NCBI RefSeq assembly: GCF_029232205.1 | Contig: NZ_CP107255.1 | Coordinates: 1,014,960 to 1,046,959 of the forward strand | DNA length: 32,000 nucleotides | Reading direction: 5' to 3' | Source: Candidatus Saccharimonadota bacterium | GTDB taxonomy: Archaea > Nanohalarchaeota > Nanosalinia > Nanosalinales > Nanosalinaceae | In this document: positions 12,237 to 31,664 of the stretch, piece by piece | Numbering within the stretch: position 1 is the stretch's first letter | Layout of the letters: the number at the start of each line of letters is the position of its first letter | Position numbers and translations under genes: made by a program | The notes under the pieces: model-generated | Told to the model about the DNA's origin: nothing | Databases searched by the model: none | Seen by the model: the letters and a program-made list of their open reading frames with translations, nothing else

Positions 12237-12261
12237 AAGAAGAAAAAAGGAATAAAATTTC

Positions 12262-13203: not shown

Positions 13204-13208
13204 AGTAT

Positions 13209-13757: not shown

Positions 13758-13767
13758 GTTTACCAGT

Positions 13768-14526: not shown

Positions 14527-14527
14527 T

Positions 14528-14546
14528 CGTAATACAAAGTATTACG
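14528..14546. promoter_or_regulatory. Perfect inverted repeat CGTAATAC-AAA-GTATTACG between a TATA box and the ATG of the cupin-Nudix-epimerase operon
   Basis: Read directly from the sequence. The palindromic TATA-like TTTATAAA lies at 14553-14560 and the operon ATG at 14526. The repeat sits 48 nt downstream of the RHH-fusion gene stop. Confidence 0.45.
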
Positions 14547-14593
14547 TTATTATTTATAAATTCTTGTTCTATAAGAGAACTCTGATTTCAAGC

Positions 14594-15340: not shown

Positions 15341-15360
15341 GTACAAAGTTTCCACGTTGA

Positions 15361-15368
15361 TATTTTAA
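15361..15368. promoter_or_regulatory. Single TATA-like box TATTTTAA shared by divergent genes
   Basis: It is centred about 27 nt from the ATG at 15392 on the plus strand and about 25 nt from the ATG at 15340 on the minus strand. Confidence 0.4.
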
Positions 15369-15391
15369 TGAATGAGGCCTAACTTTGAGGT

Positions 15392-16294
15392 ATGAAGATT
15401 GGGATTACCGGTGGCGCAGGATTCATAGGATCAACCCTTGCAGAAGAACTAAAGGACGAACACGAAGTTCTTGTGATAGATAACTTTTCTTCAGGCCGTG
15501 AGGAGAACGTGCCGGAAGGAGTAGAGGTTCTCGAGTTTGATATCAAGGATGAAGGCCTTGAAGAGTTTCTGGAGGATGTTGATACTGTTTTTCACTTTGC
15601 CGCCAATCCCAAGGTAAATACGTTCCCTGACGATAGAGAGAAGGATTTTGATGAGAACTTTGTCGGCACCAAGAATGTTTTAGATGCCTGTGTCAATGCA
15701 GATATCGATGATGTTATTTTTGCGTCTTCCTCAGTGGTTTACGGCGAGGAGGCCGAGATTCCGACTCCTGAAGATCACAGGCTTGATCCTATTTCTATGT
15801 ACGGCGCTACAAAGGCCGGTGACGAACACATGGTGCAGGTCTACGGCCAGACATTCGGTATAGATACCACTATCGTCCGACTCGCGAACATTATCGGAGG
15901 GAAGAATCCTAAAGGAGTTATCTACGACTTTGTCCACAAGCTGGATGAGAATCCTGAGGAGTTGACTATTCTCGGGAACGGTAAACAGAGAAAGTCCTAC
16001 ATCTATATTGAGGATACTGTGAACGGTATCCTAAAGGCCTGGGAGTCTGATAAATCAGTTTTCAATATTGGTTCTGAAGATTCTATTGATGTCGATAGTA
16101 TTGCGGAGATTGTCGCTGACGAGATGGGTCTTGATCCAGAGTTTTCGTATACCGGCGGCGATCGCGGCTGGACTGGCGATGTTCCGGAGATGAGGTTGAG
16201 TATTGAGAAGTTGAAGTCTGAGGGCTGGAGGCCTTCGAGAAATTCCGCTGAATCAGTAAGGAAGACTGCTCGAGAGGTAATTGAAAACCTCTAA
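15392..16294 (+). CDS. NAD-dependent nucleotide-sugar epimerase/dehydratase (archaeal GalE-like)
   Basis: 300 aa. It has the TGGAGFIGS motif, the YGATK catalytic motif and the GDRGWTGDV segment common in archaeal GalE-like proteins. Confidence 0.85.
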   Translation: MKIGITGGAGFIGSTLAEELKDEHEVLVIDNFSSGREENVPEGVEVLEFDIKDEGLEEFLEDVDTVFHFAANPKVNTFPDDREKDFDENFVGTKNVLDACVNADIDDVIFASSSVVYGEEAEIPTPEDHRLDPISMYGATKAGDEHMVQVYGQTFGIDTTIVRLANIIGGKNPKGVIYDFVHKLDENPEELTILGNGKQRKSYIYIEDTVNGILKAWESDKSVFNIGSEDSIDVDSIAEIVADEMGLDPEFSYTGGDRGWTGDVPEMRLSIEKLKSEGWRPSRNSAESVRKTAREVIENL

Positions 16295-16980
16295 AGGTCT
16301 TCACTATTTTGCAGTTCTGTCTCAGGCGTTATATCTATCTCTACAAAGTACTTCTGGCCGTTGACCTCAAAGAATCCGTTCTCATGAGGAGGAAAGCTCA
16401 GAGCTCTCAGCCTGTCAATCAGGTCGCCGGCCCGCACCTTCTCATCCAGATCGATCTCAGCAACATCATCCAGTTCATTCCTGTAATGAGTCTGGCCTGT
16501 GGAGAGATCCTGACTGCGGCCTTTTACTCCCTTCTTGATCTCAGGCCAGGCCTCTTTGAACAGCAGAACTGATTCGGACTTCAATCGCTCATAAAGATCT
16601 TTTGCAGTATCCTCTGGTTTGACAGGAACCTCCATCTGGTCGATGATCGGACCTTCATCTATTCCTTCCGCCATGTAGTGTATTGATACTCCTGCAGGGG
16701 TTCCATCAAGTAGAGGCCACATATAAGGATATGAGCCACGGTTGTAAGGCAGGAGCGATGGATGTACGTTGACTACTCCTTTCTCCGGTATCTCGATTAT
16801 CTCTTCCGGCACCTTGTGCTCGAATCCTGCAGAAATAACGATTTCGGGTTCAAGCTCTTTGATAAGGCCTAGCTGATCTTTTTCTGTAAGTAAGGCCTTT
16901 ACTTCTACATCTTCTTGCTGGTTCAGCCAGTTGTAGATCTGTTCTCCAGCATCGTTGATTCCCAGAAATACTGCTTCCAT
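16291..16980 (-). CDS. Formyltransferase (Fmt/ArnA N-terminal-domain-like), probably acting on a nucleotide-linked amino sugar
   Basis: 229 aa. NVHPSLLPYNRG supplies the Asn and His, and GIDEGPII supplies the Asp of the formyltransferase catalytic triad. The gene sits in a glycosylation island. Confidence 0.75.
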   Translation of the reverse strand: MEAVFLGINDAGEQIYNWLNQQEDVEVKALLTEKDQLGLIKELEPEIVISAGFEHKVPEEIIEIPEKGVVNVHPSLLPYNRGSYPYMWPLLDGTPAGVSIHYMAEGIDEGPIIDQMEVPVKPEDTAKDLYERLKSESVLLFKEAWPEIKKGVKGRSQDLSTGQTHYRNELDDVAEIDLDEKVRAGDLIDRLRALSFPPHENGFFEVNGQKYFVEIDITPETELQNSEDL

Positions 16981-18015: not shown

Positions 18016-18933
18016 TCACATGTAGCCAAGATCTCGTAGCTTGTTCATGATCTCTTTTTCATCTTTGTTCTGGGCCCTACCTGCTCTTTCCTTTGTGTTC
18101 TCTACATCCTGCAGCCATGCAGGAATTTCGTCGGACTTGTCTGTTGAAATCTCTGATCCTAGGCTTCTGAATCCTGCCCAGTACTTTGGACTGATAGGTA
18201 CGTCGTCCTGTGAAAGGCCTTCCGGCAGATCAGCTTCTTCTTCAGGATACTCGGAGATCTCTACTCCTGTGATGTCTGGTACCATGTGGAACCATGATGC
18301 GTCCCAGATGTCTCTTTCTGTAAGCTGTAGGATCGGGTGTACTCTCATGTGTTCCGGGTTGTCTCTTGGAGAGTAGAAGTCTTCGTCGCCTCGGGATTCG
18401 TGTTCATCCCACCGGACTCCATTAATTACGGCCTCGATTCCTTCTTCCTCCAGTAGTTCGTTCATAGGAACAGTCTTGAGAAGGTGGTTTCCGGATTCCG
18501 TGTCCATAAGCCACTGAACCTCTTCAAGTTCTTCGTCGATTCTCTTGGCCTCTTCCTGGTTGCGGTCGTTGAGCTCTGCGACAGGCACATAGTCTCCTGG
18601 TTCGTCGGCCTGGTCGATTAGATCGTCGTTTCTTGCGACCATGACTTCGAATCCCCAGTTTTCAGCTAGTCTTTCAACGTACTCTTCAAGTTCGTCAAAG
18701 TGCTGGCCGTGGTCCACGAACATGAATCTTGGTTTCTCAATGTCGTGTTCCTCGCAGACTCTCTTGACAAGCCATGCGGTTACTGTGGAGTCCTTTCCTC
18801 CTGTGAAACCGATTACAGTATTGGAAGGATCGTACTCTTCCAGTGCTCGCTTGACGACTTCTTCTCCTGCTCTGATTTTAGCTTTTAGTGGTGCGTTCTC
18901 AATTTCGTCTCGTGTTACCGGTGCTTCTGGCAT
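18016..18933 (-). CDS. CysD-like PP-loop ATP pyrophosphatase (sulfate adenylyltransferase subunit 2 / PAPS-reductase family)
   Basis: 305 aa. It has the PP-loop FTGGKDSTV. It appears colinear with E. coli CysD as I recall it: FVDHGQHFDELEEY, NGVRWDEHESRGDEDFYSPRD, RVHPILQLTERDIW, FRSLGS, and a C-terminal ...KLRDLGYM against ...KKRQGYF. No cysN-like GTPase gene is present in the window. Confidence 0.75.
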   Translation of the reverse strand: MPEAPVTRDEIENAPLKAKIRAGEEVVKRALEEYDPSNTVIGFTGGKDSTVTAWLVKRVCEEHDIEKPRFMFVDHGQHFDELEEYVERLAENWGFEVMVARNDDLIDQADEPGDYVPVAELNDRNQEEAKRIDEELEEVQWLMDTESGNHLLKTVPMNELLEEEGIEAVINGVRWDEHESRGDEDFYSPRDNPEHMRVHPILQLTERDIWDASWFHMVPDITGVEISEYPEEEADLPEGLSQDDVPISPKYWAGFRSLGSEISTDKSDEIPAWLQDVENTKERAGRAQNKDEKEIMNKLRDLGYM

Positions 18934-19271: not shown

Positions 19272-20822
19272 ATGAGCGATGCCGATCAAAAAGCCCTGAA
19301 CGCACTGGCCAAAGGAGCCGGCGTAACAGCTATCGGCATGATGGTATCAAAGGCCTTGACCTATCTCTACCGGGTTTCAATCGCACGATATGTAGGGCCT
19401 GACGCATACGGTCAGCTATCCCTTGCACTGATGGTTACAGGAATAGTAAGTACCGTAGCATACCTGGCGGTGGGTAACGGCCTGAAGAAATTCATACCAG
19501 AGTTCAGAACCCGAGACGATATGGCCAGCATCAAGGGAATAGTGCTGAATGCTCTAGAACTTACAGTTCCTCTCTCACTTGTTCTGTTTGGCCTTGTGTT
19601 TTTCGGCGCAGAGTTCATAGCAACCACTTTCTTCGATAATACAGCAATAATACCTCTGATCAAGATCCTTTCATTCACTATTCCTATTGGAACTCTTGTC
19701 AGCATATTCTTCGATACCACGCTCGGATTCAACAAAATAATATACAAGACAGGAACCGTCAGAATACTGCAGAACGTTGTACAGCTCGGAGTAACCCTGG
19801 CCCTTCTATTCCTAGGATTCAACGTAGTGAGTGCAGCTTGGGGATGGTTGGCAGGAACAACACTCTCCGCCATACTCGGATTCTACTTCATGGAGAAGAA
19901 AGTCGGGCCAATACTCTTCTCCGATGTAAAGGCCAAACATCATAGGAAAAAGCTACTCCATTTTTCAGCCCCTTTGCTTCTATCAGGAATAATAGGAACT
20001 CTGCTAGGATGGGCTGATACAGGAATGCTGGGATACTACATGACAGACTACGAAGTAGGCCTGTACAATGCAGCGCTACCAACAGCAATGCTGATACTAC
20101 TTCCTCACAAGGCCATTGGTAGTTTGGCAATCACATCCTTCTCCGAACTAAAGGAAAGAGATGCAGAAAGTATAGAGGCCTCAATGCAGACTGCAACCCG
20201 ATGGGTATTCTCACTAGTACTTCCAACATTCCTTATACTGCTTCTTTTCTCAGAAACCATCCTGCAAATCCTCTGGGGTGGCCAGTACACAGAAGCATCC
20301 TTCGCGCTCTCAATCCTAGCCTGTGGATACCTAATTAACGCAACTGTTGGCAGAGTCGGTAGCTTCCTCAACTCCACAGGACATACAAGATACATACTCT
20401 ACAACAACATCGCTGCATTAACGCTCAACCTCATCCTAAACATCCTACTGATACCTATCTACGGAATAATAGGCGCAGCAATCGCCACAGCAACATCCAC
20501 AATCCTGACGAATGTATTGATGTTCGCAGAGGTCTGGAGAAAAGAAGACGTAGTCAGCATACCATTCACACCAGCACTCAAAATAACGATTACAGGCCTA
20601 CTTGCCTTGTTGCCTGTTATAGGTCTTGACAGAGTTTTATTCAAAAATACGCCTTACTGGTTCCTGGTTCCTGCTGGTTTGATTTATGGCCTAACATATA
20701 TGGCACTATACCTGGCGATAGTAGGTCTAAGAGAGGAAGAAAGAGAAGTACTAAAGAGAGTAGGAGAGTTAATAGGGAGAGAAAAGGAAATAGAGAAAAT
20801 TCTAGGGCTAATTATCTCTTAG
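19272..20822 (+). CDS. Oligosaccharide/polysaccharide flippase (Wzx/RfbX-type, MOP superfamily)
   Basis: 516 aa with about 14 hydrophobic segments. The N-terminus (GAGVTAIGMMVSKALTYLYRVSIARYVGPDAYG) is typical of polysaccharide biosynthesis proteins. Confidence 0.8.
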   Translation: MSDADQKALNALAKGAGVTAIGMMVSKALTYLYRVSIARYVGPDAYGQLSLALMVTGIVSTVAYLAVGNGLKKFIPEFRTRDDMASIKGIVLNALELTVPLSLVLFGLVFFGAEFIATTFFDNTAIIPLIKILSFTIPIGTLVSIFFDTTLGFNKIIYKTGTVRILQNVVQLGVTLALLFLGFNVVSAAWGWLAGTTLSAILGFYFMEKKVGPILFSDVKAKHHRKKLLHFSAPLLLSGIIGTLLGWADTGMLGYYMTDYEVGLYNAALPTAMLILLPHKAIGSLAITSFSELKERDAESIEASMQTATRWVFSLVLPTFLILLLFSETILQILWGGQYTEASFALSILACGYLINATVGRVGSFLNSTGHTRYILYNNIAALTLNLILNILLIPIYGIIGAAIATATSTILTNVLMFAEVWRKEDVVSIPFTPALKITITGLLALLPVIGLDRVLFKNTPYWFLVPAGLIYGLTYMALYLAIVGLREEEREVLKRVGELIGREKEIEKILGLIIS

Positions 20823-21539
20823 ATCGAACTCTCTGTTGGCCTTTCTCAATCTCTCCGGAGTGCCAACATCTATACGAGTTCCGATAATATCTCTGTAGCC
20901 AACATTATCATTTCTCTGTCGGAGAATATCAATGGCATCGGTTAGCTGATATTCTCCTCCTTTACCCTTCTCGACGTCTTCTATGGCATTGAAGATCTCT
21001 GGCTCAAAAACATACATACCAGAGATAGCGATATCGGATGGCGCCTCATCTTCAGAAGGCTTCTCAACCATTCCCTTCACTCTGTTGTCTTCATCAACAT
21101 CCAAGACGCCGTAAGAAGTTACATCATCAGGCCTGAAAGTTCCGATTGTAGTATCAAACTCTTTATTGCTGTGGAATTCAACCAGATCTTTCAAAGCTTT
21201 TTTATCATCGACATAATTATCGCCAAGCACAACTGCAAAAGATTCTTCACCTACAACATGTTCTCCTGCTTTTACAGCTCCGGCAAGACCATTCCTATCA
21301 TCTTGAACAACATAGGTTAGCTGAACTCCATAATCATCTCCGGAACCAAGGTAGTCTAGAATAGCATGCTGTTTCCATCCAACAACGATCACAATATCGG
21401 TGATACCTGCGTGTTTCATATCTTCAATGCAGTGTTCAATTACTGCTTTCTCACCTACAGGAAGAAGTTCCTTAGGGTACGCATTTGTAAACGGTTCCAT
21501 TCTTGTGCCTTTACCGGCAGCCGGAATCAAGCCTTTCAT
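20808..21539 (-). CDS. Sugar-1-phosphate nucleotidyltransferase (GalU/AglF-like UTP-glucose-1-phosphate uridylyltransferase type)
   Basis: MKGLIPAAGKGTRMEPFTNAYPKELLPVG shows an intact G-x-G-T-R loop and a K-E-L-L-P segment. The ORF track starts at 21575, but the ATG at 21539 fits the family N-terminus and the TATA spacing. Confidence 0.85.
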   Translation of the reverse strand: MKGLIPAAGKGTRMEPFTNAYPKELLPVGEKAVIEHCIEDMKHAGITDIVIVVGWKQHAILDYLGSGDDYGVQLTYVVQDDRNGLAGAVKAGEHVVGEESFAVVLGDNYVDDKKALKDLVEFHSNKEFDTTIGTFRPDDVTSYGVLDVDEDNRVKGMVEKPSEDEAPSDIAISGMYVFEPEIFNAIEDVEKGKGGEYQLTDAIDILRQRNDNVGYRDIIGTRIDVGTPERLRKANREFDLRDN

Positions 21540-21560
21540 AACACAGAATAATGGCTCTTG

Positions 21561-21570
21561 ATATTTTTTA
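21561..21570. promoter_or_regulatory. Single AT-rich TATA-like element ATATTTTTTA shared by a divergent gene pair
   Basis: It is centred about 29 nt from the ATG at 21595 on the plus strand and about 27 nt from the ATG at 21539 on the minus strand. Confidence 0.4.
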
Positions 21571-21594
21571 TGCATACGCCTCTAAACTATAGAT

Positions 21595-22893
21595 ATGGAT
21601 ATCAGCATTGTAGGAACAGGCTACGTTGGGCTGCCAGCAGGAGCAGGCCTCGCATCCAAAGGCAATCACAACGTAACATGTGTCGATATCGACGAAGAAA
21701 AGGTAGAGAAGATAAACAACGGAGAATGTCCTATCTACGAGGAAGATCTACCGGAGCTCCTTGAAAAAATGGTTGAGGACGGGAAACTTTCTGCAACCAC
21801 AAACACCAGCGATGCTGTACACAACTCTGAGATAACCTTTCTTGCAGTAGGCACCCCTATGCAGGAAGATGGAAGCATCAATCTTGACTACATCAAACAG
21901 GCCGCGGAAGACATAGGAGAGGGCCTGAGAGATAAAGAAGAATATCATGTAGTTGTGGTCAAGAGCACGGTAGTGCCTGGTACAACTGAGAACGAAGTAA
22001 TACCTAGAATTGAGGAAAAATCAGGTAAGAAAGCTGGCGAAGACTTCGGAGTATGTATGAACCCAGAGTTCCTGCGAGAAGGAACAGCACTGAACGACTT
22101 TCTGAATCCAGATAGAATTGTAATAGGAGAACTTGACGAAAAATCAGGAAGCAAGATAGAAGAAATGTATTCCGCGTTCGACGTACCGAAGATAAGAACT
22201 TCTCTACAGGCAGCAGAACTGATAAAATATGCATCGAACTCTTTGCTTGCCACCAAGATCTCATTCATCAACGAAATTGGAAACCTGTGTAAGGAACTGA
22301 ATATTGATGTATACGAAGTAGCAGACGGAGTAGGCCTCGACCACAGAATTAACAGAGACTTCCTAGACTCTGGAGCGGGCTTTGGAGGATCGTGTTTCCC
22401 TAAAGACGTCAGAGCGCTGGCCTCATTCATGGAAGAAAAAAATCTTGACCCAAAAATACTGAATGACACCATCCAGGTAAACGAAGAACAGAAAACCAAA
22501 CTCGTCGAACAACTACAAGACCACTATCCAGATCTCTCAGGTAAGACAATAGCAGTACTAGGTCTAGCATTCAAACCAGGAACCGACGACATAAGACAGT
22601 CTCCAGCAATCGATATAATCTCCGAACTCAAATATCTCGGAGCAGAAGTGAAGGCCTATGACCCAAAAGCAATAGAGAACATGAAACAAAAACATCCAGA
22701 AATCCAGTACACTTCAAACTATGAAGAGGCCTTAAAAGATGCTGACGCAGCCCTAATAGTAACAGACTGGAAAGAATTCAACCAGATCTCACGAGAAGAC
22801 CTACAGGAAATGAACAAGGCCTTGATACTGGAAGGAAGAAGAATGGAATACAAAATAGACAAAGAAAACAGGAAGGGAGTGACGTGGCCATGA
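21595..22893 (+). CDS. ugd: UDP-glucose 6-dehydrogenase (AglM-type)
   Basis: 432 aa. It has the ISIVGTGYVGL Rossmann motif, the catalytic GFGGSCFPKD and the C-terminal GLAFKPGTDDIRQSPA. Confidence 0.92.
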   Translation: MDISIVGTGYVGLPAGAGLASKGNHNVTCVDIDEEKVEKINNGECPIYEEDLPELLEKMVEDGKLSATTNTSDAVHNSEITFLAVGTPMQEDGSINLDYIKQAAEDIGEGLRDKEEYHVVVVKSTVVPGTTENEVIPRIEEKSGKKAGEDFGVCMNPEFLREGTALNDFLNPDRIVIGELDEKSGSKIEEMYSAFDVPKIRTSLQAAELIKYASNSLLATKISFINEIGNLCKELNIDVYEVADGVGLDHRINRDFLDSGAGFGGSCFPKDVRALASFMEEKNLDPKILNDTIQVNEEQKTKLVEQLQDHYPDLSGKTIAVLGLAFKPGTDDIRQSPAIDIISELKYLGAEVKAYDPKAIENMKQKHPEIQYTSNYEEALKDADAALIVTDWKEFNQISREDLQEMNKALILEGRRMEYKIDKENRKGVTWP

Positions 22894-23780
22894 AAACTAC
22901 AGTAAGTTATCCTGTAGGAGGTAGCGATTTCGCTGAAAAAGCACTTGACCTCACTAACTCAATAAGGAGAAATTCGGATGAAGTAAAGATAGTGACAGGG
23001 ATAAGAGAAGAGGAAAAAGATGAGATAGATGAAGAAACATTAAGAGAGATAAAAGAGAAGACAGAGATGCATACTATAAGAAGATCAACAGAAAAGTATC
23101 CTATTAGTGCGAAAATATCAACCATGAAAAAGGCCTCTGAGGAGGTAGATAGCGATATATTGATACACCTAGATTCTGATGTTTTTGTGGTAGACAATAT
23201 TGAAGACATATTCAAAATCCGAAATGATAAAGATTTTTTGGCTAAGCCCGTAGACTTTGGAAACCAGCATTATGCATGTAAGAAAAGCTTTAAACAATGG
23301 CAAGAGATTGCTAACGCTCTTAACAAAGATTTTAAAGGTTTAAAATATAGGAGCACTATAGATAACAACCGAATACCTCCCTACTTCAATGCAGGCGTCG
23401 TTGTATCATTCAACGATGAGTTCCCTAAAAGATGGGCTCAGGTAACAGACAAAGTATATGAAATAACTCAGAGTCGTTATTCCGACCAAATAGCATTAGG
23501 TCTACTGGAGCAAGAGTTTAAAAGAGGAAAAATAGAAGAGAAAAAAAGTTACAACCTGCCAGGACACTTTAGAGTTCCAGAAAATGTGGAAATACTAAGA
23601 TATGAAGATTACAATCATTTATTAAGATTAAAGGCTGTTTTGCGCTCAAACATAGAAGAAACCATAGATTTAGAGAATAAGTGGGAGAGTGAAAGAGACA
23701 GAGTGCGCGGACTGATTAAATCTTATAAGTTCTATCTATCTCTTCACTACCGATACCTGAGAAAAATACCAAAATTTTAG
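22890..23780 (+). CDS. GT-A fold nucleotide-diphospho-sugar transferase (GT8-like, D-x-D)
   Basis: LIHLDSDVFVV contains D-x-D, and PPYFNAGVVV is GT8-like. It is a paralog of the product of 30900..31664. The ATG at 22890 overlaps the ugd stop in an ATGA arrangement; the ORF track starts at a GTG at 22884. Confidence 0.55.
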   Translation: MKTTVSYPVGGSDFAEKALDLTNSIRRNSDEVKIVTGIREEEKDEIDEETLREIKEKTEMHTIRRSTEKYPISAKISTMKKASEEVDSDILIHLDSDVFVVDNIEDIFKIRNDKDFLAKPVDFGNQHYACKKSFKQWQEIANALNKDFKGLKYRSTIDNNRIPPYFNAGVVVSFNDEFPKRWAQVTDKVYEITQSRYSDQIALGLLEQEFKRGKIEEKKSYNLPGHFRVPENVEILRYEDYNHLLRLKAVLRSNIEETIDLENKWESERDRVRGLIKSYKFYLSLHYRYLRKIPKF

Positions 23781-23790
23781 AAACAGCGCC

Positions 23791-24621
23791 ATGAAAACAA
23801 AAATCTACAAGAGGTACAAGTATGATGTATTTCCTCGGATAGGACATCTTCGAGGTACAACGAGAGTTAAAGATATTTTAGAGAAAATAGCTCAGACAGG
23901 TATAGAGAAGATAGATGAGGAAAATATAGAGCACATTTATGAGAAGGACTGGGATAATCTGATTATTCTTGATGCCTCCCGACATGATACGTATCAAGAA
24001 ACACTGAATCCTGATTCTGATAGCAGGATAACTGCTCAAAGCCATTCAAGAGGGTTTATTAGGGAAAATTTTTCAGAAGGAGATTGGTCTGATACCGTTG
24101 TCATAACTGCAAATCCTTTCTACAATGAAGAAGAGTTTGAGAAACTGGTAGGAGCGAAACCAGAGGAGATTTTTGAAACAATTTTTCAGGTCTGGAATAC
24201 CGATTGGAATGAAAAGCATGGTACGGTAATGCCAGATAAAGTGGTTGAAAAAGTTAAAACCGCGGACAAACTATTCCCCGAAAAGAGAAAGATCATTCAT
24301 TTCATGCAACCTCATTACCCTTTCATTAACTCCAATATAGACGATACTAGCTTCGAAGACGCGGTTTTGAAAGAAGATTATGATGATATATGGGAGAAAA
24401 CGGAGAAAGGTGAGACAGAACCAGAAGAAGTAAGAAAGGCTTATCTGGACAACCATAATACTGTTGTGCAACACGTTGAGAAAATTCAAGATCTTTTAGA
24501 CGGGAAAACAGTAGTAACCGCAGATCATGGAAACCTGCTAGGAGAGAATGGTTTTTGGGGGCACCCCGGCAATTCTAATCTAAAACCTCTGAGGAAGGTT
24601 CCATGGGATGTGTTACAATGA
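23791..24621 (+). CDS. Small alkaline-phosphatase-superfamily protein (sulfatase/PglZ/NPP-like core); paralog of 27890..28774
   Basis: WDNLIILDASRHD, IHFMQPHYPFI and VVTADHGNLLGENGFWGHPG match the metal-ligand motifs of the AP superfamily. There is no signal peptide or TM segment. Confidence 0.5.
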   Translation: MKTKIYKRYKYDVFPRIGHLRGTTRVKDILEKIAQTGIEKIDEENIEHIYEKDWDNLIILDASRHDTYQETLNPDSDSRITAQSHSRGFIRENFSEGDWSDTVVITANPFYNEEEFEKLVGAKPEEIFETIFQVWNTDWNEKHGTVMPDKVVEKVKTADKLFPEKRKIIHFMQPHYPFINSNIDDTSFEDAVLKEDYDDIWEKTEKGETEPEEVRKAYLDNHNTVVQHVEKIQDLLDGKTVVTADHGNLLGENGFWGHPGNSNLKPLRKVPWDVLQ

Positions 24622-25658
24622 AAGTTTTGATGACTCCTTTTGTTGAGAATCCTTATCAGTCTATACTCAAGGAGAAGTTGGAGGATAGAAATATAGAAGT
24701 TGCTTCTGAAAAGTTTATTCCCGGATATAAACTGTTTTTAGAGGTTCTAAGCGAATGTCCTGACGTTATTCATTTGAACTGGGTTGATAGATTCTATATT
24801 ACTACAGACGACGTTTTATGGAAAAATTTGGCCGCAGGAGTCTTTTTTAGTTTTAATTTGATCCTAGTCAGTTTTTTCACCAGGATTGTGTGGACTGCCC
24901 ATAATAAGCATAATCATGAAGAAAAGTCTCCTAGATTGGATTGGATAATGAGAAAGTTTGTTTTCTGGATTTCTGATAGTGTCCAAGTTTGGGAGAAGAA
25001 TAGTAAGAGGGAGTTGTGCAAGTATTTGAATGTGAGTGATGAGAAAATAATTCAAATTCCGCACGGAAATTACCTTCCTGTTCACCCCGAGGAAAATCTT
25101 CCAAGCCAAGAGAATGCTAGAAAAGAACTTAATCTAGAAATGAAATCTAAAATTATTTTATTTTTTGGCAATATCAGGCCTTACAAGCAGGTTCCTCTAC
25201 TTGCTGAAAAGTTTGAAGAACTGAAGGATGATAATTCAAAACTCTTAATTGTTGGTCGTGCCAGACAGCAAGAAACTAAAAACAAACTTTCTACTATTGC
25301 TGAAAAAAGCGAAGATATTGAATTCATAGAAGGATTTATTGATGAAAATGATGTTCCTCTATATTTCAGAGCATCAGACATAGTAGCCCTGCCTTTCCGC
25401 GACATCTTTAATTCAGGCAGCATTATTATGGCTATGAGTATGGGAAGAGCAGTTTTGACCCCTAAAATAAAAATAATTAATTCTGTGGTTCCTAACAGCA
25501 ATATTCTTTACGAGAATATTAGTGAGGGAATGAAGAGGCTATTTAGCGAAGATAGGAAGAATATGAGAAAAATTGGAGATCAGAACCTAGAACATGCAAA
25601 ATTAGAAAATAATTGGAACGAAATCACTGATAAAACAGTAAAAATGTACAGAGCCTAG
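24618..25658 (+). CDS. GT-B glycosyltransferase (group 1 / GT4 family)
   Basis: The C-terminal domain (FFGNIRPYKQV...LLIVGRA...ASDIVALPFRDIFNSGSIIMAMSMGRAVLTP) is typical of GT4. The ATG at 24618 overlaps the upstream stop in an ATGA arrangement. Confidence 0.8.
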   Translation: MKVLMTPFVENPYQSILKEKLEDRNIEVASEKFIPGYKLFLEVLSECPDVIHLNWVDRFYITTDDVLWKNLAAGVFFSFNLILVSFFTRIVWTAHNKHNHEEKSPRLDWIMRKFVFWISDSVQVWEKNSKRELCKYLNVSDEKIIQIPHGNYLPVHPEENLPSQENARKELNLEMKSKIILFFGNIRPYKQVPLLAEKFEELKDDNSKLLIVGRARQQETKNKLSTIAEKSEDIEFIEGFIDENDVPLYFRASDIVALPFRDIFNSGSIIMAMSMGRAVLTPKIKIINSVVPNSNILYENISEGMKRLFSEDRKNMRKIGDQNLEHAKLENNWNEITDKTVKMYRA

Positions 25659-26974
25659 ATTTGACCTCCATACAGTATCGAGGCCTTGTTTTGGAGTTCT
25701 TCTGGTATATCGATAGGACTGTTTTCTGTCAGGTCTTTGAATGGCCAGGCCTTTTCTCCATCGGTTGTTAGGTCGTATTTTGCTTTTGAGTTGATGAGTG
25801 AGAAGCTTTTGCGGTTGTATATTTCTTCGCATCCTTCTGGTATTTTTCGTCCGAACTGTTTGATGAATCCTTTTCTGCCGAAGTATTCGGAGTTCAGTAT
25901 TTCTTCACTCCCTATTTTGCCGTCTTTGATCAGGTTCTGTATTATATCTATCACTTCTGTGTGGCTGTAGAGGCCTTTTTCATCTATTTTGAGCTCTAGT
26001 TCTTTTCCTTTGCTGAAGATTATGCATGGGACTTCTATGAGTTCCTTGTATGTTCCTAGGTGGTGGCCGATCAGTTTGGTTCCCTGTTGTTCGTATTCTC
26101 CTATCAGCTCGCCGTGATCTCCGATAACTACGAATACTGTGTCTTCTGGGGCTTTTTCATAAAAGTCCTTTATTTTTCTGTCTGCGTATCTTATGGAGGC
26201 CTTGTATGCTTTTTCTCTCGTTTCTAGTTTTCTGTCGGAGAATCCTTCTGGAAGGTAGTCTTCTATTATCTTGGTCTGTGAGGCCTCCATTATCTCTTTT
26301 TCGTTGTGATCGGCCAGGAATTCTTCTCTATCTTCTTCATCGAAGGTGTATGGCGAGTGTACGGGCATGATGTTGACGAAGACGAATTCGTCTTCCTGTG
26401 ATTCAAGTTTTCTATTCGCTTCTTCCAAGGTCCTCACTGTTTTACCTGAGTTATAGTCTGCTTCTCTTGAACTGAATTTGTCGATTATGTGGCCGAGGAA
26501 GCTTTTTGCCGATTCGAGATCTTTTTTCTTTACTGTTTCTTTGAAGAAGTACTTGTATTTTTCTCTTCTTCCTGAGAACTCATCGTCTTTTTGCCATATC
26601 TCTTTCCAGGTCTTGCCACCGAGATCTTCAGTGGTCTGCACAAATTCCTGAAATCCTTCGGCGAATCCTGTTTCTTCGGTTATCAGATGGTTTTCTGTGA
26701 AAGCAGAGGTCTTGAAGTCTTCTGACTCCAGCACTGAAGTCAGCCTGTTTTCCTCGCTGAAGTAGGTATTTTCCGTTGTTGTGCCGTGTTCAGAAGGAAG
26801 TTTTCCTGAGAAAAGCGAGGCGTGAGCTGGTACTGTCCACGGTGAACTGGCATAGTAATGTTCGAGGTATATGTCTTCTTCTGCTTTCTCTGATAGGAAT
26901 GGAGCTATTGATCTATCTTTTACGAAGTCCTTTCTTCTCCAGGTGTCGACTACTAGAAGAACGATATTTGTCAT
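25655..26974 (-). CDS. Cytoplasmic sulfatase-fold (AP superfamily) enzyme with a non-canonical T-x-P-x-H nucleophile motif
   Basis: 439 aa. VLLVVDTWR supplies the first metal Asp. YASSPWTVPAHASLFSGKLPSEHG aligns with the sulfatase signature y-a-x-x-p-x-C-x-P-x-R-a-x-l-l-T-G-x-x-P-x-x-H-G, but with C changed to T and R changed to H. MPVHSPY and VIGDHGELIGE are also present. There is no signal peptide. Confidence 0.75.
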   Translation of the reverse strand: MTNIVLLVVDTWRRKDFVKDRSIAPFLSEKAEEDIYLEHYYASSPWTVPAHASLFSGKLPSEHGTTTENTYFSEENRLTSVLESEDFKTSAFTENHLITEETGFAEGFQEFVQTTEDLGGKTWKEIWQKDDEFSGRREKYKYFFKETVKKKDLESAKSFLGHIIDKFSSREADYNSGKTVRTLEEANRKLESQEDEFVFVNIMPVHSPYTFDEEDREEFLADHNEKEIMEASQTKIIEDYLPEGFSDRKLETREKAYKASIRYADRKIKDFYEKAPEDTVFVVIGDHGELIGEYEQQGTKLIGHHLGTYKELIEVPCIIFSKGKELELKIDEKGLYSHTEVIDIIQNLIKDGKIGSEEILNSEYFGRKGFIKQFGRKIPEGCEEIYNRKSFSLINSKAKYDLTTDGEKAWPFKDLTENSPIDIPEELQNKASILYGGQI

Positions 26975-27897
26975 TTTAACACGTCCTTGGCCTTTACAGC
27001 CAGCTGCATCATGTCAAGGCCTGTGGTTCTTCTAACAGTATAGAGAGTCATTAGTGCATAGGCCTCTGGTTCCAGTAAATTGTTCTTCAGGGTTTTAGAG
27101 AGATGTCTTCGGACGCCCTCATTGTCACCGAGAGTGTACTGTTTTTTGGCTCTATTGAGATGATGTTGTGCTTTAACTTTACTTCCTGCTTGATCAAGAA
27201 GCTCTGAATATTTTTCCGTTATTTTTTCACGGCCTTCGGTGGCTATATCCATCTGAGAGCTTTTAGAGTTATTTTCTTGTTGATATCTTACCAGTGGCTC
27301 GTCTATGTATCCAAATGTACATCCTTCTTTGATCAGTCTGATCCATAGATCCCAGTCCTCGCCGCTGGGTATATCCTCGTCGAAGCCGTCTATTCTCTCC
27401 AGGTACTTCTTTGTAACTGTTACTTTTGATGGGGATCCTATCATGTCTTTTTCAAGTATGTCTTCAAGACCTATCTCTCCTCTCTTTCGGACTATATCTT
27501 TTACCTCTCCGTCTCTGTACATTTCTATGGCAGAGTAAACTGCGTCATACTCATTGTTTTCAAAGGCGTCTAATTCTCTTTCCAGTTTTTCCGGCTTCCA
27601 CCAGTCATCATCGTCTAGAAACGCAATGTATTCTCCTTCTGAGTTCTCTATACCTAGATTACGGGCAGAAGATACTCCCTGTTTATCACTGTTGATTAGA
27701 AGTTTTACAGAGAATGATGCTTGTTCTCTAAATTCTTCAACTATTTCACGGACTTTTTCCCTGTATTCTTTTTCAGGGTTATCATCTATTACTAATAGCT
27801 CAAAATCTCTGTATGTCTGACTTTTGATGCTATCAAGAGCTCTAACAAGCTCATCTGTTCTCTGGTATGTCGGAACTACAACAGAGAATTCAGTCAA
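26971..27897 (-). CDS. GT2-family glycosyltransferase
   Basis: FSVVVPTYQRTDELVRALDSIKSQTYRDFELLVIDDNP, then FLDDDDWW (D-x-D) and the E-D-W-D region, form a classic GT2 signature. Confidence 0.88.
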   Translation of the reverse strand: MTEFSVVVPTYQRTDELVRALDSIKSQTYRDFELLVIDDNPEKEYREKVREIVEEFREQASFSVKLLINSDKQGVSSARNLGIENSEGEYIAFLDDDDWWKPEKLERELDAFENNEYDAVYSAIEMYRDGEVKDIVRKRGEIGLEDILEKDMIGSPSKVTVTKKYLERIDGFDEDIPSGEDWDLWIRLIKEGCTFGYIDEPLVRYQQENNSKSSQMDIATEGREKITEKYSELLDQAGSKVKAQHHLNRAKKQYTLGDNEGVRRHLSKTLKNNLLEPEAYALMTLYTVRRTTGLDMMQLAVKAKDVLK

Positions 27898-28774
27898 TTT
27901 TTATCCCTTCTACTTCCAGCCATGGGACTGTATACTGTTTAGGGTTATCGCTTTCTTCTTGGTGGCCCCAGTCATTGTGTTCTCCAAGAGCTTCTCCGTG
28001 ATCTGCTGTGACTATTACGTTTCCATCAAGTTCATTGACAAGTCTTGCCACCTGCTCCAAAGCCATCCTCAGATCCTGCTGGTAGTAATCTCTGACTCCA
28101 TCTTCTCCTATTTCCTGGACTAGTGCTCCCCAGTGCGGGTTTTTCAGACCTACCATGTTCTTGATCTTCCATCTGGTTCTGTAAGGTAGCTTCCAGAAAA
28201 ACTTGCTCCAGTAAGGTCTCGTTGTCTCAATAAGATCTCTTTTCAAAGTAGTTTCTTCTTCATATTCTTTACCCTCTGCTAGAGACCCTACTTTTTCGTG
28301 ATCATCCCAGGGCTTTGATTTGACAGGACAGCTGATATAAGGCCTGTGTGGCTGTATATAGTGTATTATCATTTTTCCGCTGTTGTCCTCTTCCAGCGCA
28401 ATATCTGTTACATCTTCAGGCCTTACGGTGTTTTCTTCTTCGTCCCATTTTATGTCCCAGACGTCTATTATTTCTGTGAACTTGTTGACTGCGTTCCAGT
28501 CCTCTTCGTATCCTGGCATCTGGTCCTGATGGCTTACTCCTTTACCGTTGCAGTAAGGATTGGCTGAGATATACTTGTAGTTGTAGCGTGAGGTAAATGT
28601 CTTTCTCAACCATTCGGGGGTTGATGTTCCTTTTGTTCTTTTCTTGGAGAGATTTCCTTCAAGGAAGTCCTGATAGTTTTCTTTGAAAAAGTCATACCTG
28701 CACGCATCTAGAACAATCAGATAATCCCAATCTGTACCATTTACATCCTGTGTTTCAAGTTCCATATCTGTCAC
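27890..28774 (-). CDS. Small alkaline-phosphatase-superfamily protein; paralog of 23791..24621
   Basis: WDYLIVLDACRYD, YISANPY, IHYIQPHRPYI, IVTADHGEALGEHNDWGH and VPW are colinear with the same motifs in the 23791..24621 product. Confidence 0.5.
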   Translation of the reverse strand: MTDMELETQDVNGTDWDYLIVLDACRYDFFKENYQDFLEGNLSKKRTKGTSTPEWLRKTFTSRYNYKYISANPYCNGKGVSHQDQMPGYEEDWNAVNKFTEIIDVWDIKWDEEENTVRPEDVTDIALEEDNSGKMIIHYIQPHRPYISCPVKSKPWDDHEKVGSLAEGKEYEEETTLKRDLIETTRPYWSKFFWKLPYRTRWKIKNMVGLKNPHWGALVQEIGEDGVRDYYQQDLRMALEQVARLVNELDGNVIVTADHGEALGEHNDWGHQEESDNPKQYTVPWLEVEGIKID

Positions 28775-28797
28775 TTATGTCTGTATTTATTTAGAGG

Positions 28798-30084
28798 CTA
28801 CTCAAGCATGATTTTTATTTTGGTTTCAAGTTCTTCCTGATCTTCGAAACAATCAGATTCTTCAGAGTGACATCTCTGATCTGAGATGAACTGGAAATCT
28901 TTCAGGTGCGAGTTTATTACAAGGCCTTTATCCTGTTTGATCGCTGCCTTCGAGCTGTTGTAGGAGAACTTTTTCTTCAGGCCTTCGAAATTCTCTGTGT
29001 TATTTTCTTCCTGCATGCTGGCCATCTCTTTCCATCCTGCATACTCCGAGTATACCGTCTCGCTTGTCTCTAACTCGCCACCTAGTATCAGTTTTTCAAG
29101 TTTCCTCCAGGAAAAGTTTTCCTCAACAGTTTCGTTAGGTATTCCATCGCCAGCAACTATCAGCGGAACACGTATCGATTTCTCCCATATTCCACATTGG
29201 TGGAAGTATGCACCGTGTTCTCCAAAGTTTTCCCCATGATCACTGGTAACTATGAAAACCAGGTCATCCAGTTCTTCATTAAGATAATTATACAGTGATT
29301 CCAGTTTATCATCAAGATATCTTATAGATGAATCATAGAGATCGATTAATTCTTGATCGCTGCAGCTAGGGAAACCCTGGTAGAATATATCTGGTTTTTC
29401 GGAGTTAAGATGATCTTTCATGTGTCTGGAGATTTTCTCAGATGCGTTATCTGTAAACTGTTCTGCGTACTCTTCTGGGGGATTGTAAGGTAGATGAACA
29501 TCTGTATAGTTTATGAACAGGAAGTTAGGCCTATCTCCAGCTTGGATTTCCTTCCGTGTTATTTCTTCTATTGTATCAGCTCCTCTGCTCGAACCTCCTG
29601 TGATTTTGCTGTGAATAAGTTTTAGGCCTTTTCTTAAGGTTCCTATATCCGGGTTTTTCAGGGCTTTTATTGCTGCTCTTAGCAAGTCCTGAGAGTTTTC
29701 TGTATCGAAGTCAAAGACTTCGTGGAAAGATTTGAAACCTCGATCAAAATTAAGGTCTGCTGAAACAAGGCTATTCGCAGATATTCCTACAGTATTGTAT
29801 CCTTCTTCAGAAAGATCCTCTACGAAAGATCTTTCATCAAACATCATCGAACCTGTGGTAACATCATGTTCTGAAGGAAGCTTGCCACTGAAAAGAGATG
29901 CATGAGAGGGAGCTGTCCACGGAGCATTGGTATATGCGTTCTCCACAAGAAGATTTTTTCCAGCAAGATCTGTCAGAAAAGGCGCAGTATCTCTATCATA
30001 ACCATAGAATGGCAGGTGAAATGCAGAAAGAGTGTCTGCAACAATAAGGACAACATTCTTATCGTCAATATCTATTTTACTCAT
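28798..30084 (-). CDS. Cytoplasmic sulfatase-fold (AP superfamily) enzyme with the T-x-P-x-H motif; paralog of 25655..26974
   Basis: 428 aa. Motifs present are VVLIVADTL, YTNAPWTAPSHASLFSGKLPSEHD, DVHLPYNPP and VTSDHGENFGEHG. There is no signal peptide. Confidence 0.75.
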   Translation of the reverse strand: MSKIDIDDKNVVLIVADTLSAFHLPFYGYDRDTAPFLTDLAGKNLLVENAYTNAPWTAPSHASLFSGKLPSEHDVTTGSMMFDERSFVEDLSEEGYNTVGISANSLVSADLNFDRGFKSFHEVFDFDTENSQDLLRAAIKALKNPDIGTLRKGLKLIHSKITGGSSRGADTIEEITRKEIQAGDRPNFLFINYTDVHLPYNPPEEYAEQFTDNASEKISRHMKDHLNSEKPDIFYQGFPSCSDQELIDLYDSSIRYLDDKLESLYNYLNEELDDLVFIVTSDHGENFGEHGAYFHQCGIWEKSIRVPLIVAGDGIPNETVEENFSWRKLEKLILGGELETSETVYSEYAGWKEMASMQEENNTENFEGLKKKFSYNSSKAAIKQDKGLVINSHLKDFQFISDQRCHSEESDCFEDQEELETKIKIMLE

Positions 30085-30907
30085 TTATTTTCTCCTCGTA
30101 GTCTCTCACTAACTGTTCAAAGCTTTTATCCTGAACTACTTCCACATTCTCATAGTTCTCTTCCAGCCATTCTGCAAAGTTTTTCTGGTGGCCTCCTGCA
30201 TGGCTTGAAGGCCTTACTATGACTTTTTCTGCAAGGTTTGCTGCTTCATAACTTGTCATTCCTCCTCTAGTTACCACTGTCTCAGTTCTCCCCATCAAGT
30301 CCAGGAACTCGCTGTGTGAAATGTCTTTCCAGTATTTTTCCTGTAGCTCCGGATCGTTGCTGGAAGGTATTATCAGTAATTCGTTGTCCTTTTCCCCGGA
30401 TTCATGTTCTGAAAAGTCTCTGAACTGGATGATCTGTTTGTTCTCAACCCTCTCTGTATCATACTTATCAAGTAATTCGTCCTGGGACACCCATACACGC
30501 GTATTAGATAATTTGGAAAGCATCTTTGGTGTAAGAGATGGCTGTTTCGTCCTGTTTTCTGCCTCTACAGCTATCACGTCTATGCCTTTGAGGCCTGCGA
30601 TAAGGCCTATAGGAAAAGAAGTGTTTGCTCCGTAAGCGACTACTTTTTCCGGCTTTTCTTCTCTCAGTATTCTCCAAGATCTGTAGAAGTTTTTTAGTGT
30701 TCTTAGAGGTCTGTAGAGTTTTGCTCCTGTAGGCCTGAAACTTGGTACTCGATAGATCTTGTCTGCGAAGCTGTAATCGTATTCGTCCTGGTGATCTGTG
30801 ACTATTATGTATTCTGGATCCTCTATCTCCTCTTCGATTCTGGCCTTGATTGCTGGTGTAGCGGTTGCATGGCCTGAATGTCTTGAACCGAGCATTATCT
30901 TAGTCAT
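30077..30907 (-). CDS. Fused Alg14-like/Alg13-like GT-B glycosyltransferase (GT28/MurG-related; candidate Dol-PP-GlcNAc beta-1,4-GlcNAc transferase)
   Basis: The N-terminal half (MLGSRHSGHAT..., KPEKVVAYGANTSFPIGLIAGLKGIDVIAVEAENRTKQPSLTPKML) is colinear with the Alg14 pattern (GSGGHT...kPd.vi.nGpg...p......g.k.iyiEs.aRv..lSltGkl). The C-terminal half (TVVTRGGMTSYEAANLAEKVIVRPS...GGHQKNFAEWLEE) resembles Alg13/MurG C-terminal domains. This assignment rests on pattern recall. Confidence 0.5.
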   Translation of the reverse strand: MTKIMLGSRHSGHATATPAIKARIEEEIEDPEYIIVTDHQDEYDYSFADKIYRVPSFRPTGAKLYRPLRTLKNFYRSWRILREEKPEKVVAYGANTSFPIGLIAGLKGIDVIAVEAENRTKQPSLTPKMLSKLSNTRVWVSQDELLDKYDTERVENKQIIQFRDFSEHESGEKDNELLIIPSSNDPELQEKYWKDISHSEFLDLMGRTETVVTRGGMTSYEAANLAEKVIVRPSSHAGGHQKNFAEWLEENYENVEVVQDKSFEQLVRDYEEKINE

Positions 30908-31664
30908 AGAATTTCAGCTTGTTGATGTAGTTTTTGATGACATTTACCATGGATGAGCCTGCTGCCTGTTCGATATGATAGACATAGGCATCAGCTGTTT
31001 TTTCCTCCAGCCATTCCAGAGTATGTTCTTTGGAAGTCATTTTTTCGACGTTTCCTGATGCTGTGGCCAGGGCAAGTGCATACTGTTCCCTATGATTCAC
31101 TTTTCCTCTCTGGATATCCATCTCCTGGAAGTATTTCAGCCATTTATCCTCGAGGCCTCTGTGAAAACCGTTTTTGAATATCAGGAAACCGGCATTCGGC
31201 ATCCAGTCAGTATAAGGCTCTTCATGCTTTTCGAAAAGAGGTTTCCATTCCTCTTCCTCCGGAGGTTCCTCAGGTCGGGCCTTGAACTCGAAGTCTCCTT
31301 CAAGAACATCCCATATATTATTGCCAACTACAGTATCACAGTCGAGAAATACTACGTTTTCTTCTTCTAGTGAGCAGAGGTTGATTTTCTCTCCGTAGTG
31401 TCTTTCTGGAAGTGATCGTGAAACGTTGAAGGCCTCTGTCTGGTTTTCTTTCTTGATTATTTCTGCGCCCGTCTCCTCGAGAATTTCTTCATCTTCTTTG
31501 TCGTACGGAGGTGTGTAGAATATCTTGATCTGTTCTGGTTCGACATGGTTTTTCAGAGTCGCTATCGATCTCAGGCATTGCTGGACCATTTTGTTTCTGC
31601 TGCTGAGCGTGTATACAAAAGCTGTTTTTTCTCTGTCAACCATGCAGTAGTATTGCAACTGCAT
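30900..31664 (-). CDS. GT-A fold nucleotide-diphospho-sugar transferase (GT8-like, D-x-D); paralog of 22890..23780
   Basis: VVFLDCDTVV contains D-x-D. FKARPEE, MPNAGFLIF and REQYALALA are colinear with FLAKPVD, YFNAGVVV and SDQIALGLL of the paralog. An alternative start is the ATG at 31643. Confidence 0.5.
   Translation of the reverse strand: MQLQYYCMVDREKTAFVYTLSSRNKMVQQCLRSIATLKNHVEPEQIKIFYTPPYDKEDEEILEETGAEIIKKENQTEAFNVSRSLPERHYGEKINLCSLEEENVVFLDCDTVVGNNIWDVLEGDFEFKARPEEPPEEEEWKPLFEKHEEPYTDWMPNAGFLIFKNGFHRGLEDKWLKYFQEMDIQRGKVNHREQYALALATASGNVEKMTSKEHTLEWLEEKTADAYVYHIEQAAGSSMVNVIKNYINKLKFYD

Follow-up and report, generated by a model that had tools for sequence, protein, structure and literature searches.

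We analysed a 32,000-nucleotide stretch of archaeal DNA, referred to here as the window, and found two genes for soluble proteins of 439 and 428 amino acids (long paralogs 1 and 2) that combine the fold of S1 sulfatases with active-site residues of the type found in the phosphoethanolamine transferases MCR-1 and EptA, with a threonine in the place of the nucleophile. The 428-aa product is 100% identical to a protein of Candidatus Nanohalovita haloferacivicina that is named 'sulfatase' by NCBI. This organism is a DPANN nanohaloarchaeon with a genome of 1,046,959 bp, and it has been grown together with Haloferax lucentense (PMC10266531). Judged by their residues, the two proteins are not formylglycine sulfatases. 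They are probable new DPANN members of a kind of protein whose first two members, Agl30 and Agl31 of Halobacterium salinarum, were characterised genetically in 2025. Neither this type of active site nor its association with a CysD-like gene was found in the literature searched, and it is the description of the two that is new.

The sequence-only reading of this window had described two large paralogs in which threonine and histidine replace the Cys/Ser and the Arg of the sulfatase signature. Both open reading frames (ORFs) were present and their products are PF00884 members, scoring 90.6 bits (439 aa) and 133.5 bits (428 aa). PF01663 also passed its threshold, but more weakly (39.3 and 33.6 bits), and it is the best-scoring family of neither protein, PF00884 scoring much higher. 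The two proteins share 31.5% identity across 409 aa, and the peptides quoted in that reading, WTVPAH and WTAPSH, were found in them (Table 1). In phmmer and profile alignments against solved sulfatases, including choline sulfatase and BT1918 (7oz8), the threonine fell on the Cys/Ser destined for formylglycine and the histidine on the Arg of C/S-x-P-x-R, in agreement with the earlier description. C/S-x-P/A-x-R, the motif of formylglycine sulfatases, occurs in neither protein, and both have W-T-x-P-x-H instead. The further claim that the other metal ligands are intact held in part. S1 sulfatases have the first Asp, the HisB position and the DHG metal ligands in common with the two proteins. In the residue-level alignment, however, Thr takes the place of the second Asp in the sulfatase DD pair, the GKmHW segment of 7oz8 aligned with 'isnnslv', indicating that the Lys/His pair of GKxH is lost, and the position of the second sulfate-binding Lys is held by the invariant His295.

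Ordinary formylglycine sulfatases, perhaps with formylglycine formed at another residue, would agree with the PF00884 membership, with the NCBI name and with S1 sulfatases being the closest solved structures. However, Thr cannot be oxidised to formylglycine, neither a formylglycine-generating enzyme (FGE, PF03781) nor a radical-SAM maturase was seen among the window ORFs, and the context is cytoplasmic and biosynthetic. Moreover, a canonical enzyme needs each of the residues replaced here (the Arg, the Lys/His pair of GKxH and the second Lys): in EfAS, the Arg65, Lys110, His112 and Lys324 mutants are inactive or nearly so (PMC12421950). We regard this explanation as extremely improbable. The earlier warning that a 'sulfatase' annotation would probably mislead is borne out by the name that NCBI gives to the 428-aa protein. 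The residue set is that of threonine-type phosphoethanolamine transferases.

We then compared the metal-binding region with that of MCR-1. The best PDB matches of the DHGE segment were MCR-1 and MCR-2, and the alignment was gap-free (lvfivtSDHGEnfGEhGayfH vs vsmlyvSDHGEslGEnGvylH). The NCBIfam EptA and MCR models match over residues 238-297. In MCR-1, the Zn1 ligands are Glu246, Thr285, Asp465 and His466, the Zn2 ligands are His395 and His478, and the nucleophile helix is Thr285-Met292 (PMC5175174). A threonine, an acidic residue, an Asp-His metal site and two more histidines are likewise present here (D17, T57, D282, H283, H197 and H295, all invariant or at least 90% conserved). The gap-free match and the MCR-1 ligand set together indicate that these residues form a phosphoethanolamine-transferase constellation within a sulfatase scaffold, in which H197 would be the counterpart of MCR-1 His395, as judged from the shared H-x-P..Y motif alone. 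The loss of the GKxH pair and the replacement of the second Lys by an invariant His therefore point to an S1-sulfatase fold with an MCR-1/EptA-type residue set. T-x-P-x-H...[ST]-G...H-G is also the nucleophile signature of NPP enzymes, which is consistent with the PF01663 scores.

Across 83 aligned sequences, for which the mean column identity was 26%, D17, W56, P59, H197, D282, H283, E285 and H295 were invariant, and T57 and H61 were at least 90% conserved. The picture was the same when the 439-aa protein served as the reference: D10, W46, P49, H51, H206, D286, H287, E289 and H304 were invariant, and T47 was at least 90% conserved. The loss of the sulfatase catalytic residues and the translational coupling to glycosyltransferases would also suit catalytically dead scaffolds or glycan-binding subunits that aid the neighbouring glycosyltransferases, but the alternative and complete set of metal and nucleophile residues is invariant despite the low overall identity, indicating selection on catalysis and making dead proteins very improbable.

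W-T-x-P-x-H-A-S-x-F-x-G was present in nearly all of the 120 best homologs, while T-x-P-x-H occurred in 205 of 236 homologs and S-x-P-x-H in 8 of the 236. A profile built from haloarchaeal members was searched against 1.84 billion representatives and matched 36,383 cluster representatives at E <= 1e-30; at E <= 1e-3 it matched 145,046, which amounts to PF00884 as an entire superfamily. In the 145 nearest representatives, W-[TS]-x-P was always found where the motif could be located, whereas about 15 of them have F, I, V, Y, Q, L or T in place of the His at +4. T-x-P-x-H was therefore rejected as a strict signature, and it is the Thr that stays constant rather than the His. Whether the motif defines a clade had been posed as a check. 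The counts indicate that W-T-x-P-x-H does mark a clade, a very large one of bacteria and archaea, but with a variable His and without being special to this pair or window. The clade is biochemically uncharacterised, and part of it is already labelled 'sulfatase-like hydrolase/transferase'.

Structure prediction had been proposed as a check on the place of the threonine. The AlphaFold (AF2) model of long paralog 2 had a predicted local distance difference test score (pLDDT) of 88.9 and a predicted template modelling score (pTM) of 0.90, with T57 opening helix 57-66; for long paralog 1 the values were 86.9 and 0.88, with T47 opening helix 47-56. In both confident models, the threonine occupies the canonical nucleophile position, the first residue of the helix. 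For both models, every top Foldseek match was an S1 sulfatase or a phosphonate monoester hydrolase, 6HHM and 5G2U among them, and choline sulfatase matched long paralog 2 at E 1e-20. The clade profile matched solved S1 sulfatases and phosphonate monoester hydrolases over their full length (7oz8, E 3e-58; 4upi, E 3e-53), and both proteins have the two-domain alpha/beta sulfatase fold (PF00884). For comparison, Cys61 of EfAS lies at the N-terminus of helix alpha-3 (PMC12421950). We had considered this E. faecium 'Mn-dependent arylsulfatase' (9KOQ) as a threonine-type precedent and rejected it because it is a canonical Cys61/formylglycine enzyme (PMC12421950).

No transmembrane segment or signal peptide was found in either long paralog (maximum 19-residue Kyte-Doolittle hydropathy, 1.31 and 0.76). 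Both proteins begin directly at strand 1, and the N-terminal multi-span membrane domain of the phosphoethanolamine transferase/LtaS group is absent. Long paralog 2 begins within the end of the Alg14/PssD-like gene, with which it shares 8 nt (ATGAGTAA), and long paralog 1 begins within the end of the GT2 glycosyltransferase gene, with 4 nt shared (ATGA). These results bear out the earlier statements that the proteins are soluble and translationally coupled to glycosyltransferases. The window is an AglB-anchored N-glycosylation island, in which the AglB gene and the two long genes at 25.6-30.1 kb belong to one continuous island.

Related genes lie in glycan gene clusters at every locus examined, as the suggested co-occurrence with glycan genes would have it. 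In a Halobacteriales metagenome-assembled genome (MAG), the relative lies between two GT4 genes and adjoins a flippase gene. In the same MAG, an arylsulfate-sulfotransferase-family gene (PF05935; L002 18140..18741) is found about 10 kb from the threonine-type gene, which may be coincidence. On a replicon of Haloarcula halobia, the relative is accompanied by two more PF00884 genes and by GT4, GT2 and rhamnose genes, and in Haloferax sp. Atlit-12N by two more PF00884 genes and three GT4 genes. Another nanohaloarchaeon has a relative together with four GT4 genes and three other genes of the alkaline phosphatase (AP) superfamily, and in Ca. Nanosalina sp. VS9-1 relatives flank the flippase gene of the AglB island.

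Agl30 (VNG1056C, one transmembrane segment) and Agl31 (VNG1057C, cytosolic) of Hbt. salinarum are sulfatase-like proteins of the AP superfamily encoded in the aglB cluster. Their deletion removes N-glycan sulfation, and expression of either in Haloferax volcanii leads to sulfation of a normally unsulfated glycan, with a gain of about 80 Da; on this genetic evidence they are N-glycan sulfotransferases (PMC11980604). The closest solved structures reported were 6HHM for VNG1057C and 5G2U for VNG1056C/VNG1063H, and the study mentions no catalytic residue, nucleophile, motif, mechanism or sulfate donor (PMC11980604). From the published primers, we deduced the termini MAESGSDI...YEQLEELGYT for Agl31 and MAGNLRG...TDINDHLEDLGYL, with the tail ..HLEDLGYL, for Agl30. 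The haloarchaeal tail consensus of the threonine clade is ...RLEDLGYLQ. This LGY tail is present in 56 of the 120 homologs and in 124 of the 145 representatives, including the relatives P0021 and P0025. C/S-x-P-x-R occurs in none and T/S-x-P in 275 of 294 LGY-tailed sequences, a set biased by having been gathered with threonine-type queries. No solved structure matches the tail, and the alignments of the 60 best solved sulfatases all leave the final ten positions of the profile uncovered. The LGY-tailed PF00884 paralogs of the haloarchaeal glycan loci all carry Thr as the residue at the nucleophile position, in a T-x-P-x-V or an EptA-like H-T-R-E-S-M-P context. The tail spans more than one threonine-type subfamily, since some tailed paralogs (L003 7924..9240 and L005 814..2292) have an EptA/LtaS-like nucleophile context (SSHTRESMPSLF, GPRTNESFPGIV) and not W-T-x-P. 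The match between the primer-deduced tails and the tail of the clade indicates that Agl30 and Agl31 are likely threonine-type enzymes of this clade.

We also searched for Agl30 and Agl31 themselves. The VNG1057C cloning-primer sequence ATGGCTGAATCGGGTAGCGAC had 0 matches in genome contigs and 0 in viral contigs; the species representative in the genome contigs is presumably the type strain, with a different N-glycosylation region. A single metagenome match was rejected as a chance match to a bacterial PlsX-like gene, irrelevant here. A synthetic 50-aa query made from the primer-deduced termini gave no candidate from the word index of the protein database, although a local simulation with it had succeeded. 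The search with homolog P0047 and the haloarchaeal-profile search listed no protein with Agl30 or Agl31 termini. For Agl7 of Hfx. volcanii (HVO_2046), described as one that 'contributes to sulfation', the protein family is not stated in the literature searched.

The island of the window contains a CysD-like gene between the sugar N-formyltransferase and flippase genes. The best NCBIfam family of its product is CysD (E 8.9e-24), the best PDB match is the ATP-sulfurylase subunit CysD (1zun, E 1.3e-7), and its PP-loop reads FTGGKDS. The AglB islands of three other nanohaloarchaea (L006, L007 and L008) have the gene in the same place, with 87-92% identity, and in L007 and L008 a short PF01663 gene of the AP superfamily lies directly upstream, co-directional and 34 and 20 nt away, respectively. 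The C-terminus of the CysD-like protein, ...IMNKLRDLGYM, resembles the ...[RK]L..LGY[LIVMY] tail of the threonine clade (homologs P0021-P0381) and of Agl30/Agl31; this resemblance may reflect a shared docking motif or chance. It presumably extends to the C-terminus of E. coli CysD (...KKRQGYF). None of the window ORFs was found to encode a classical sulfotransferase domain.

On these findings, we propose that each of the two soluble cytoplasmic enzymes would accept an anionic group on its threonine, as a covalent intermediate formed from a donor in the cytoplasm. The final acceptor would be a hydroxyl on a sugar of the dolichol-phosphate-linked glycan, which would receive the group ahead of its flipping and its transfer by AglB. 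Sulfate is the most probable group, and it would make the two enzymes counterparts of Agl31 (soluble) and Agl30; the CysD-like enzyme encoded in this island could make the donor. We infer that the long paralogs are transferases rather than hydrolases; sulfate transfer to the glycan in the manner of Agl30/Agl31 is put forward tentatively, with a likelihood approaching an even chance but not reaching it. The Agl30/Agl31 sulfation data and the conserved CysD-like gene make sulfate at least as likely as phosphoryl transfer. The sequence-only reading had favoured glycan-modifying phospho(di)ester enzymes on the cytoplasmic face. The cytoplasmic location, the coupling to glycosyltransferases and the threonine at the nucleophile position stand, whereas the phospho(di)ester as the transferred group is not established.

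Several observations weigh against sulfate transfer. To our knowledge, all characterised Ser/Thr enzymes of the AP superfamily are phosphoryl transferases, and a Thr in a His-rich, possibly two-metal site is a phosphotransferase signature. The CysD-like protein scores 84 bits, far below the NCBIfam CysD cutoff of 195; no CysN, CysC or Sat gene was found in the window, and no PAPS_reduct gene in four other glycan loci with such proteins. The window proteins end in ...IKIMLE and ...ILYGGQI, without the LGY tail. The link to Agl30/Agl31, drawn from published descriptions and primer-deduced termini, is circumstantial. In the heterologous experiment, by our own reading, the shift from m/z 1,224.47 to 1,264.45 (2+), given to two decimals, does not by itself separate SO3 from HPO3 (PMC11980604).

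Instead, the enzymes may be phospho(di)ester transferases and attach either phosphate or a phospho-alcohol (phosphoglycerol, phosphoethanolamine, phosphocholine or similar) to the lipid-linked glycan through a phospho-threonine, like LtaS and EptA/MCR-1 but as soluble proteins on the cytoplasmic face. The invariant Asp/Thr/Asp-His/His/His set with its gap-free SDHGE..GE.G...H match to MCR-1/MCR-2, the NCBIfam EptA/MCR matches, the above-threshold PF01663 scores and the NPP-type T-x-P-x-H all agree with this, as does the record of the characterised Ser/Thr enzymes, and the two nucleotidyltransferase genes of the island could supply CDP- or NDP-activated donors. However, the overall similarity of the proteins is much greater to S1 sulfatases (E 3e-58) than to phosphoethanolamine transferases, and they are without the membrane domain and the extracytoplasmic location of LtaS/EptA. 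In addition, sulfate esters are a documented charged substituent of haloarchaeal N-glycans, and the sole functional data on cluster-embedded sulfatase-like proteins point, like the CysD-like gene in the island, to sulfation. We consider phospho(di)ester transfer possible but less likely than not.

Alternatively, the long paralogs could be hydrolases (phosphodiesterases, nucleotide pyrophosphatases or threonine-type esterases) that trim or edit the lipid-linked glycan or nucleotide-activated precursors, for example by removing a transient phospho or sulfo group or by cleaving a by-product. Most AP-superfamily members are hydrolases, PF01663 is above threshold, the island has a NUDIX hydrolase gene, and transient modification has a precedent in the Hbt. 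salinarum glycan, which is methylated and then demethylated (PMC11980604). Nevertheless, the tight coupling to glycosyltransferases and the several paralogs per cluster, varying with the glycosyltransferases, look like structure-specific decorators, and Agl30 and Agl31 add a group rather than remove one. We consider hydrolases improbable.

Table 1. Features of the window and related genes (window positions unless a locus is named).
Feature	Position	Strand	Remarks
AglB/STT3 oligosaccharyltransferase	8073..10739	+	PF02516, PF21436; anchors the island
AglH-like GT4	10736..11848	+	PF00953; overlaps the AglB gene
Cupin, two epimerase/dehydratases, NUDIX, nucleotidyltransferase	11850..16294
Nucleotidyltransferase with N-terminal ribbon-helix-helix (CopG) domain	14594..15355	-	unusual fusion
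Sugar N-formyltransferase	16291..16980	-	dTDP-4-amino-4,6-dideoxyglucose formyltransferase-like, E 1.4e-32
CysD-like PP-loop protein	18016..18933	-	PF01507, E 8e-24; candidate sulfate-activating enzyme
CysD-like homologs	L006 10001..10918; L007 3370..4287; L008 10001..10918
Wzx-type flippase	19272..20822	+	PF13440, PF01943
Second nucleotidyltransferase	20808..21575
UDP-glucose-dehydrogenase-like	21595..22893
Convergent operon	22884..25658	+	GT8-like, short AP-like and GT1 genes
Second short AP-superfamily paralog (276 aa)	23791..24621	+	26% identity to 294-aa short paralog, E 3e-22; PF00884 below threshold
GT1/GT4-type glycosyltransferase	24603..25658	+	PF00534, E 2.8e-13; convergent with long paralog 1
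Six-gene operon	31664..25655	-	GT8-like, Alg14/PssD-like, long paralog 2, short AP-like, GT2, long paralog 1
Long paralog 1 (439 aa)	25655..26974	-	soluble threonine-type sulfatase-fold protein; PF00884, E 1.5e-25; PF01663, E 8e-10
Metal-binding block D286-H287-G-E289...H304, long paralog 1	26063..26119	-	all invariant; 5-residue insertion before the last His
Nucleophile motif W46-T47-V-P49-A-H51, long paralog 1	26822..26839	-	W46, P49, H51 invariant; T47 at least 90% conserved
GT2 glycosyltransferase	26971..27897	-	PF00535, E 2.2e-32
Short AP-superfamily paralog (294 aa)	27890..28774	-	between the two long genes; PF00884, 27.4 bits against a cutoff of 25
Long paralog 2 (428 aa)	28798..30084	-	soluble threonine-type sulfatase-fold protein; PF00884, E 1.2e-38; PF01663, E 4.3e-8
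Metal-binding block D282-H283-G-E285...H295, long paralog 2	29200..29241	-	all invariant; H295 on the sulfatase second Lys
H197 of H-L-P-Y, long paralog 2	29494..29496	-	invariant; sulfatase HisB position, on the H of 'rpHspY' in 7oz8
Nucleophile motif W56-T57-A-P59-S-H61, long paralog 2	29902..29919	-	T57 on the formylglycine Cys/Ser, H61 on the Arg
D17 (VADT), long paralog 2	30034..30036	-	first metal ligand, end of strand 1; invariant; on the first Asp of sulfatases
Alg14/PssD-like glycosyltransferase subunit	30077..30907	-	PF08660 weak; NF041549 PssD, E 1.1e-16
GT8-like	30900..31664	-	first operon gene seen in the window; PF01501 weak, E 0.006; adjoins the Alg14-like gene in L006 too

Besides the long paralogs, the island encodes two short proteins of the AP superfamily. 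The 294-aa protein contains LDACRYD, QPHRPY and TADHGEALGEHNDWGH, and it shares with the 276-aa protein the minimal motifs LDA[CS]R.D, QPH.P[YF] and TADHG..LGE...WGH and a weak similarity to the STM4013/SEN3800 hydrolase family. In strain M3_22, a 55%-identical homolog of the 294-aa protein (L006 3690..4523) directly follows the Alg14-like gene, which is the place of long paralog 2 here. The sugar N-formyltransferase gene suggests an N-formylated amino sugar in the glycan. The G+C content is 0.375-0.39 at window positions 22001..26000 vs about 0.45 in the first 20 kb, and the AP-like and glycosyltransferase content of this low-G+C part differs in L006 and L008, while the core from AglB to the flippase is conserved. 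The drop in G+C and the varying content make this part look like a variable, possibly exchanged, serotype-like module. Upstream of the island, a lamin-tail-domain protein of 261 aa (1957..2742, minus strand; PF00932, E 1.3e-10) is encoded, possibly a surface protein.

The route of haloarchaeal N-glycan sulfation was unexplained until sulfatase-like proteins were implicated genetically in 2025. If Agl30 and Agl31 share the threonine-type site, a concrete mechanism can be offered for it, with a covalent threonine intermediate in an MCR-1-like metal site and possibly a CysD-derived donor. The W-T-x-P clade, with the window pair and probably Agl30/Agl31, could then form a new mechanistic class of carbohydrate sulfotransferase, in which an AP/sulfatase fold would act through a sulfo-threonine intermediate, independently of the classical sulfotransferase fold that uses 3'-phosphoadenosine 5'-phosphosulfate (PAPS), and would draw adenosine 5'-phosphosulfate (APS) from the island CysD-like enzyme. 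We hold this wider proposal to be speculative and rather unlikely. If it is true, 'sulfatase' annotations in the glycan clusters of bacteria and archaea would in thousands of cases name the reverse reaction, and specialists would find a sulfotransferase working on a threonine-type AP-superfamily site surprising. Among the PF00884 'sulfatase' annotations in biosynthetic glycan clusters, a very large set is probably wrong in direction or chemistry. For a DPANN symbiont, the charge of surface glycans may matter for contact with the host, and the co-culture with Hfx. lucentense makes glycan mass spectrometry feasible.

Among known systems, Agl30 and Agl31 resemble the window proteins in being sulfatase-like members of the AP superfamily in an aglB-anchored cluster, and Agl31 is cytosolic as the window proteins are. 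Their reported closest structures, 6HHM and 5G2U, are among the Foldseek top matches of the window proteins, and their primer-deduced tails match the tail of the clade to which the window proteins belong. The window proteins differ in lacking the LGY tail and in coming from a DPANN nanohaloarchaeon. S1 sulfatases and phosphonate monoester hydrolases, such as choline sulfatase (6G5Z), BT1918 (7OZ8) and EfAS (9KOQ), belong to the same family and share the two-domain fold over its full length. The window proteins differ from the S1 sulfatases in the changes of Cys/Ser to Thr, Arg to His, the second Asp to Thr and the second Lys to His and in the loss of GKxH, and S1 sulfatases are secreted and catabolic whereas the window proteins are predicted to be cytoplasmic and biosynthetic.

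MCR-1, EptA, EptC and LtaS have in common with the window proteins a Thr at the N-terminus of a helix, a site with an acidic residue, Thr and Asp-His, two more His and an identical SDHGE..GE.G...H spacing, and they work through a covalent threonine intermediate with transfer to a glycan or lipid acceptor. In contrast to the window proteins, however, they have a multi-span membrane domain, act outside the cytoplasmic membrane, use phospholipid donors and have no sulfatase C-terminal subdomain, and their overall similarity to the window proteins is much lower than that of the sulfatases. NPP enzymes (PF01663) share the nucleophile signature; PF01663 is above threshold in the window proteins, and short PF01663 proteins occur in nanohaloarchaeal islands. 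NPPs, however, are secreted hydrolases, whereas the window proteins have a sulfatase-like C-terminal half and score much higher with PF00884.

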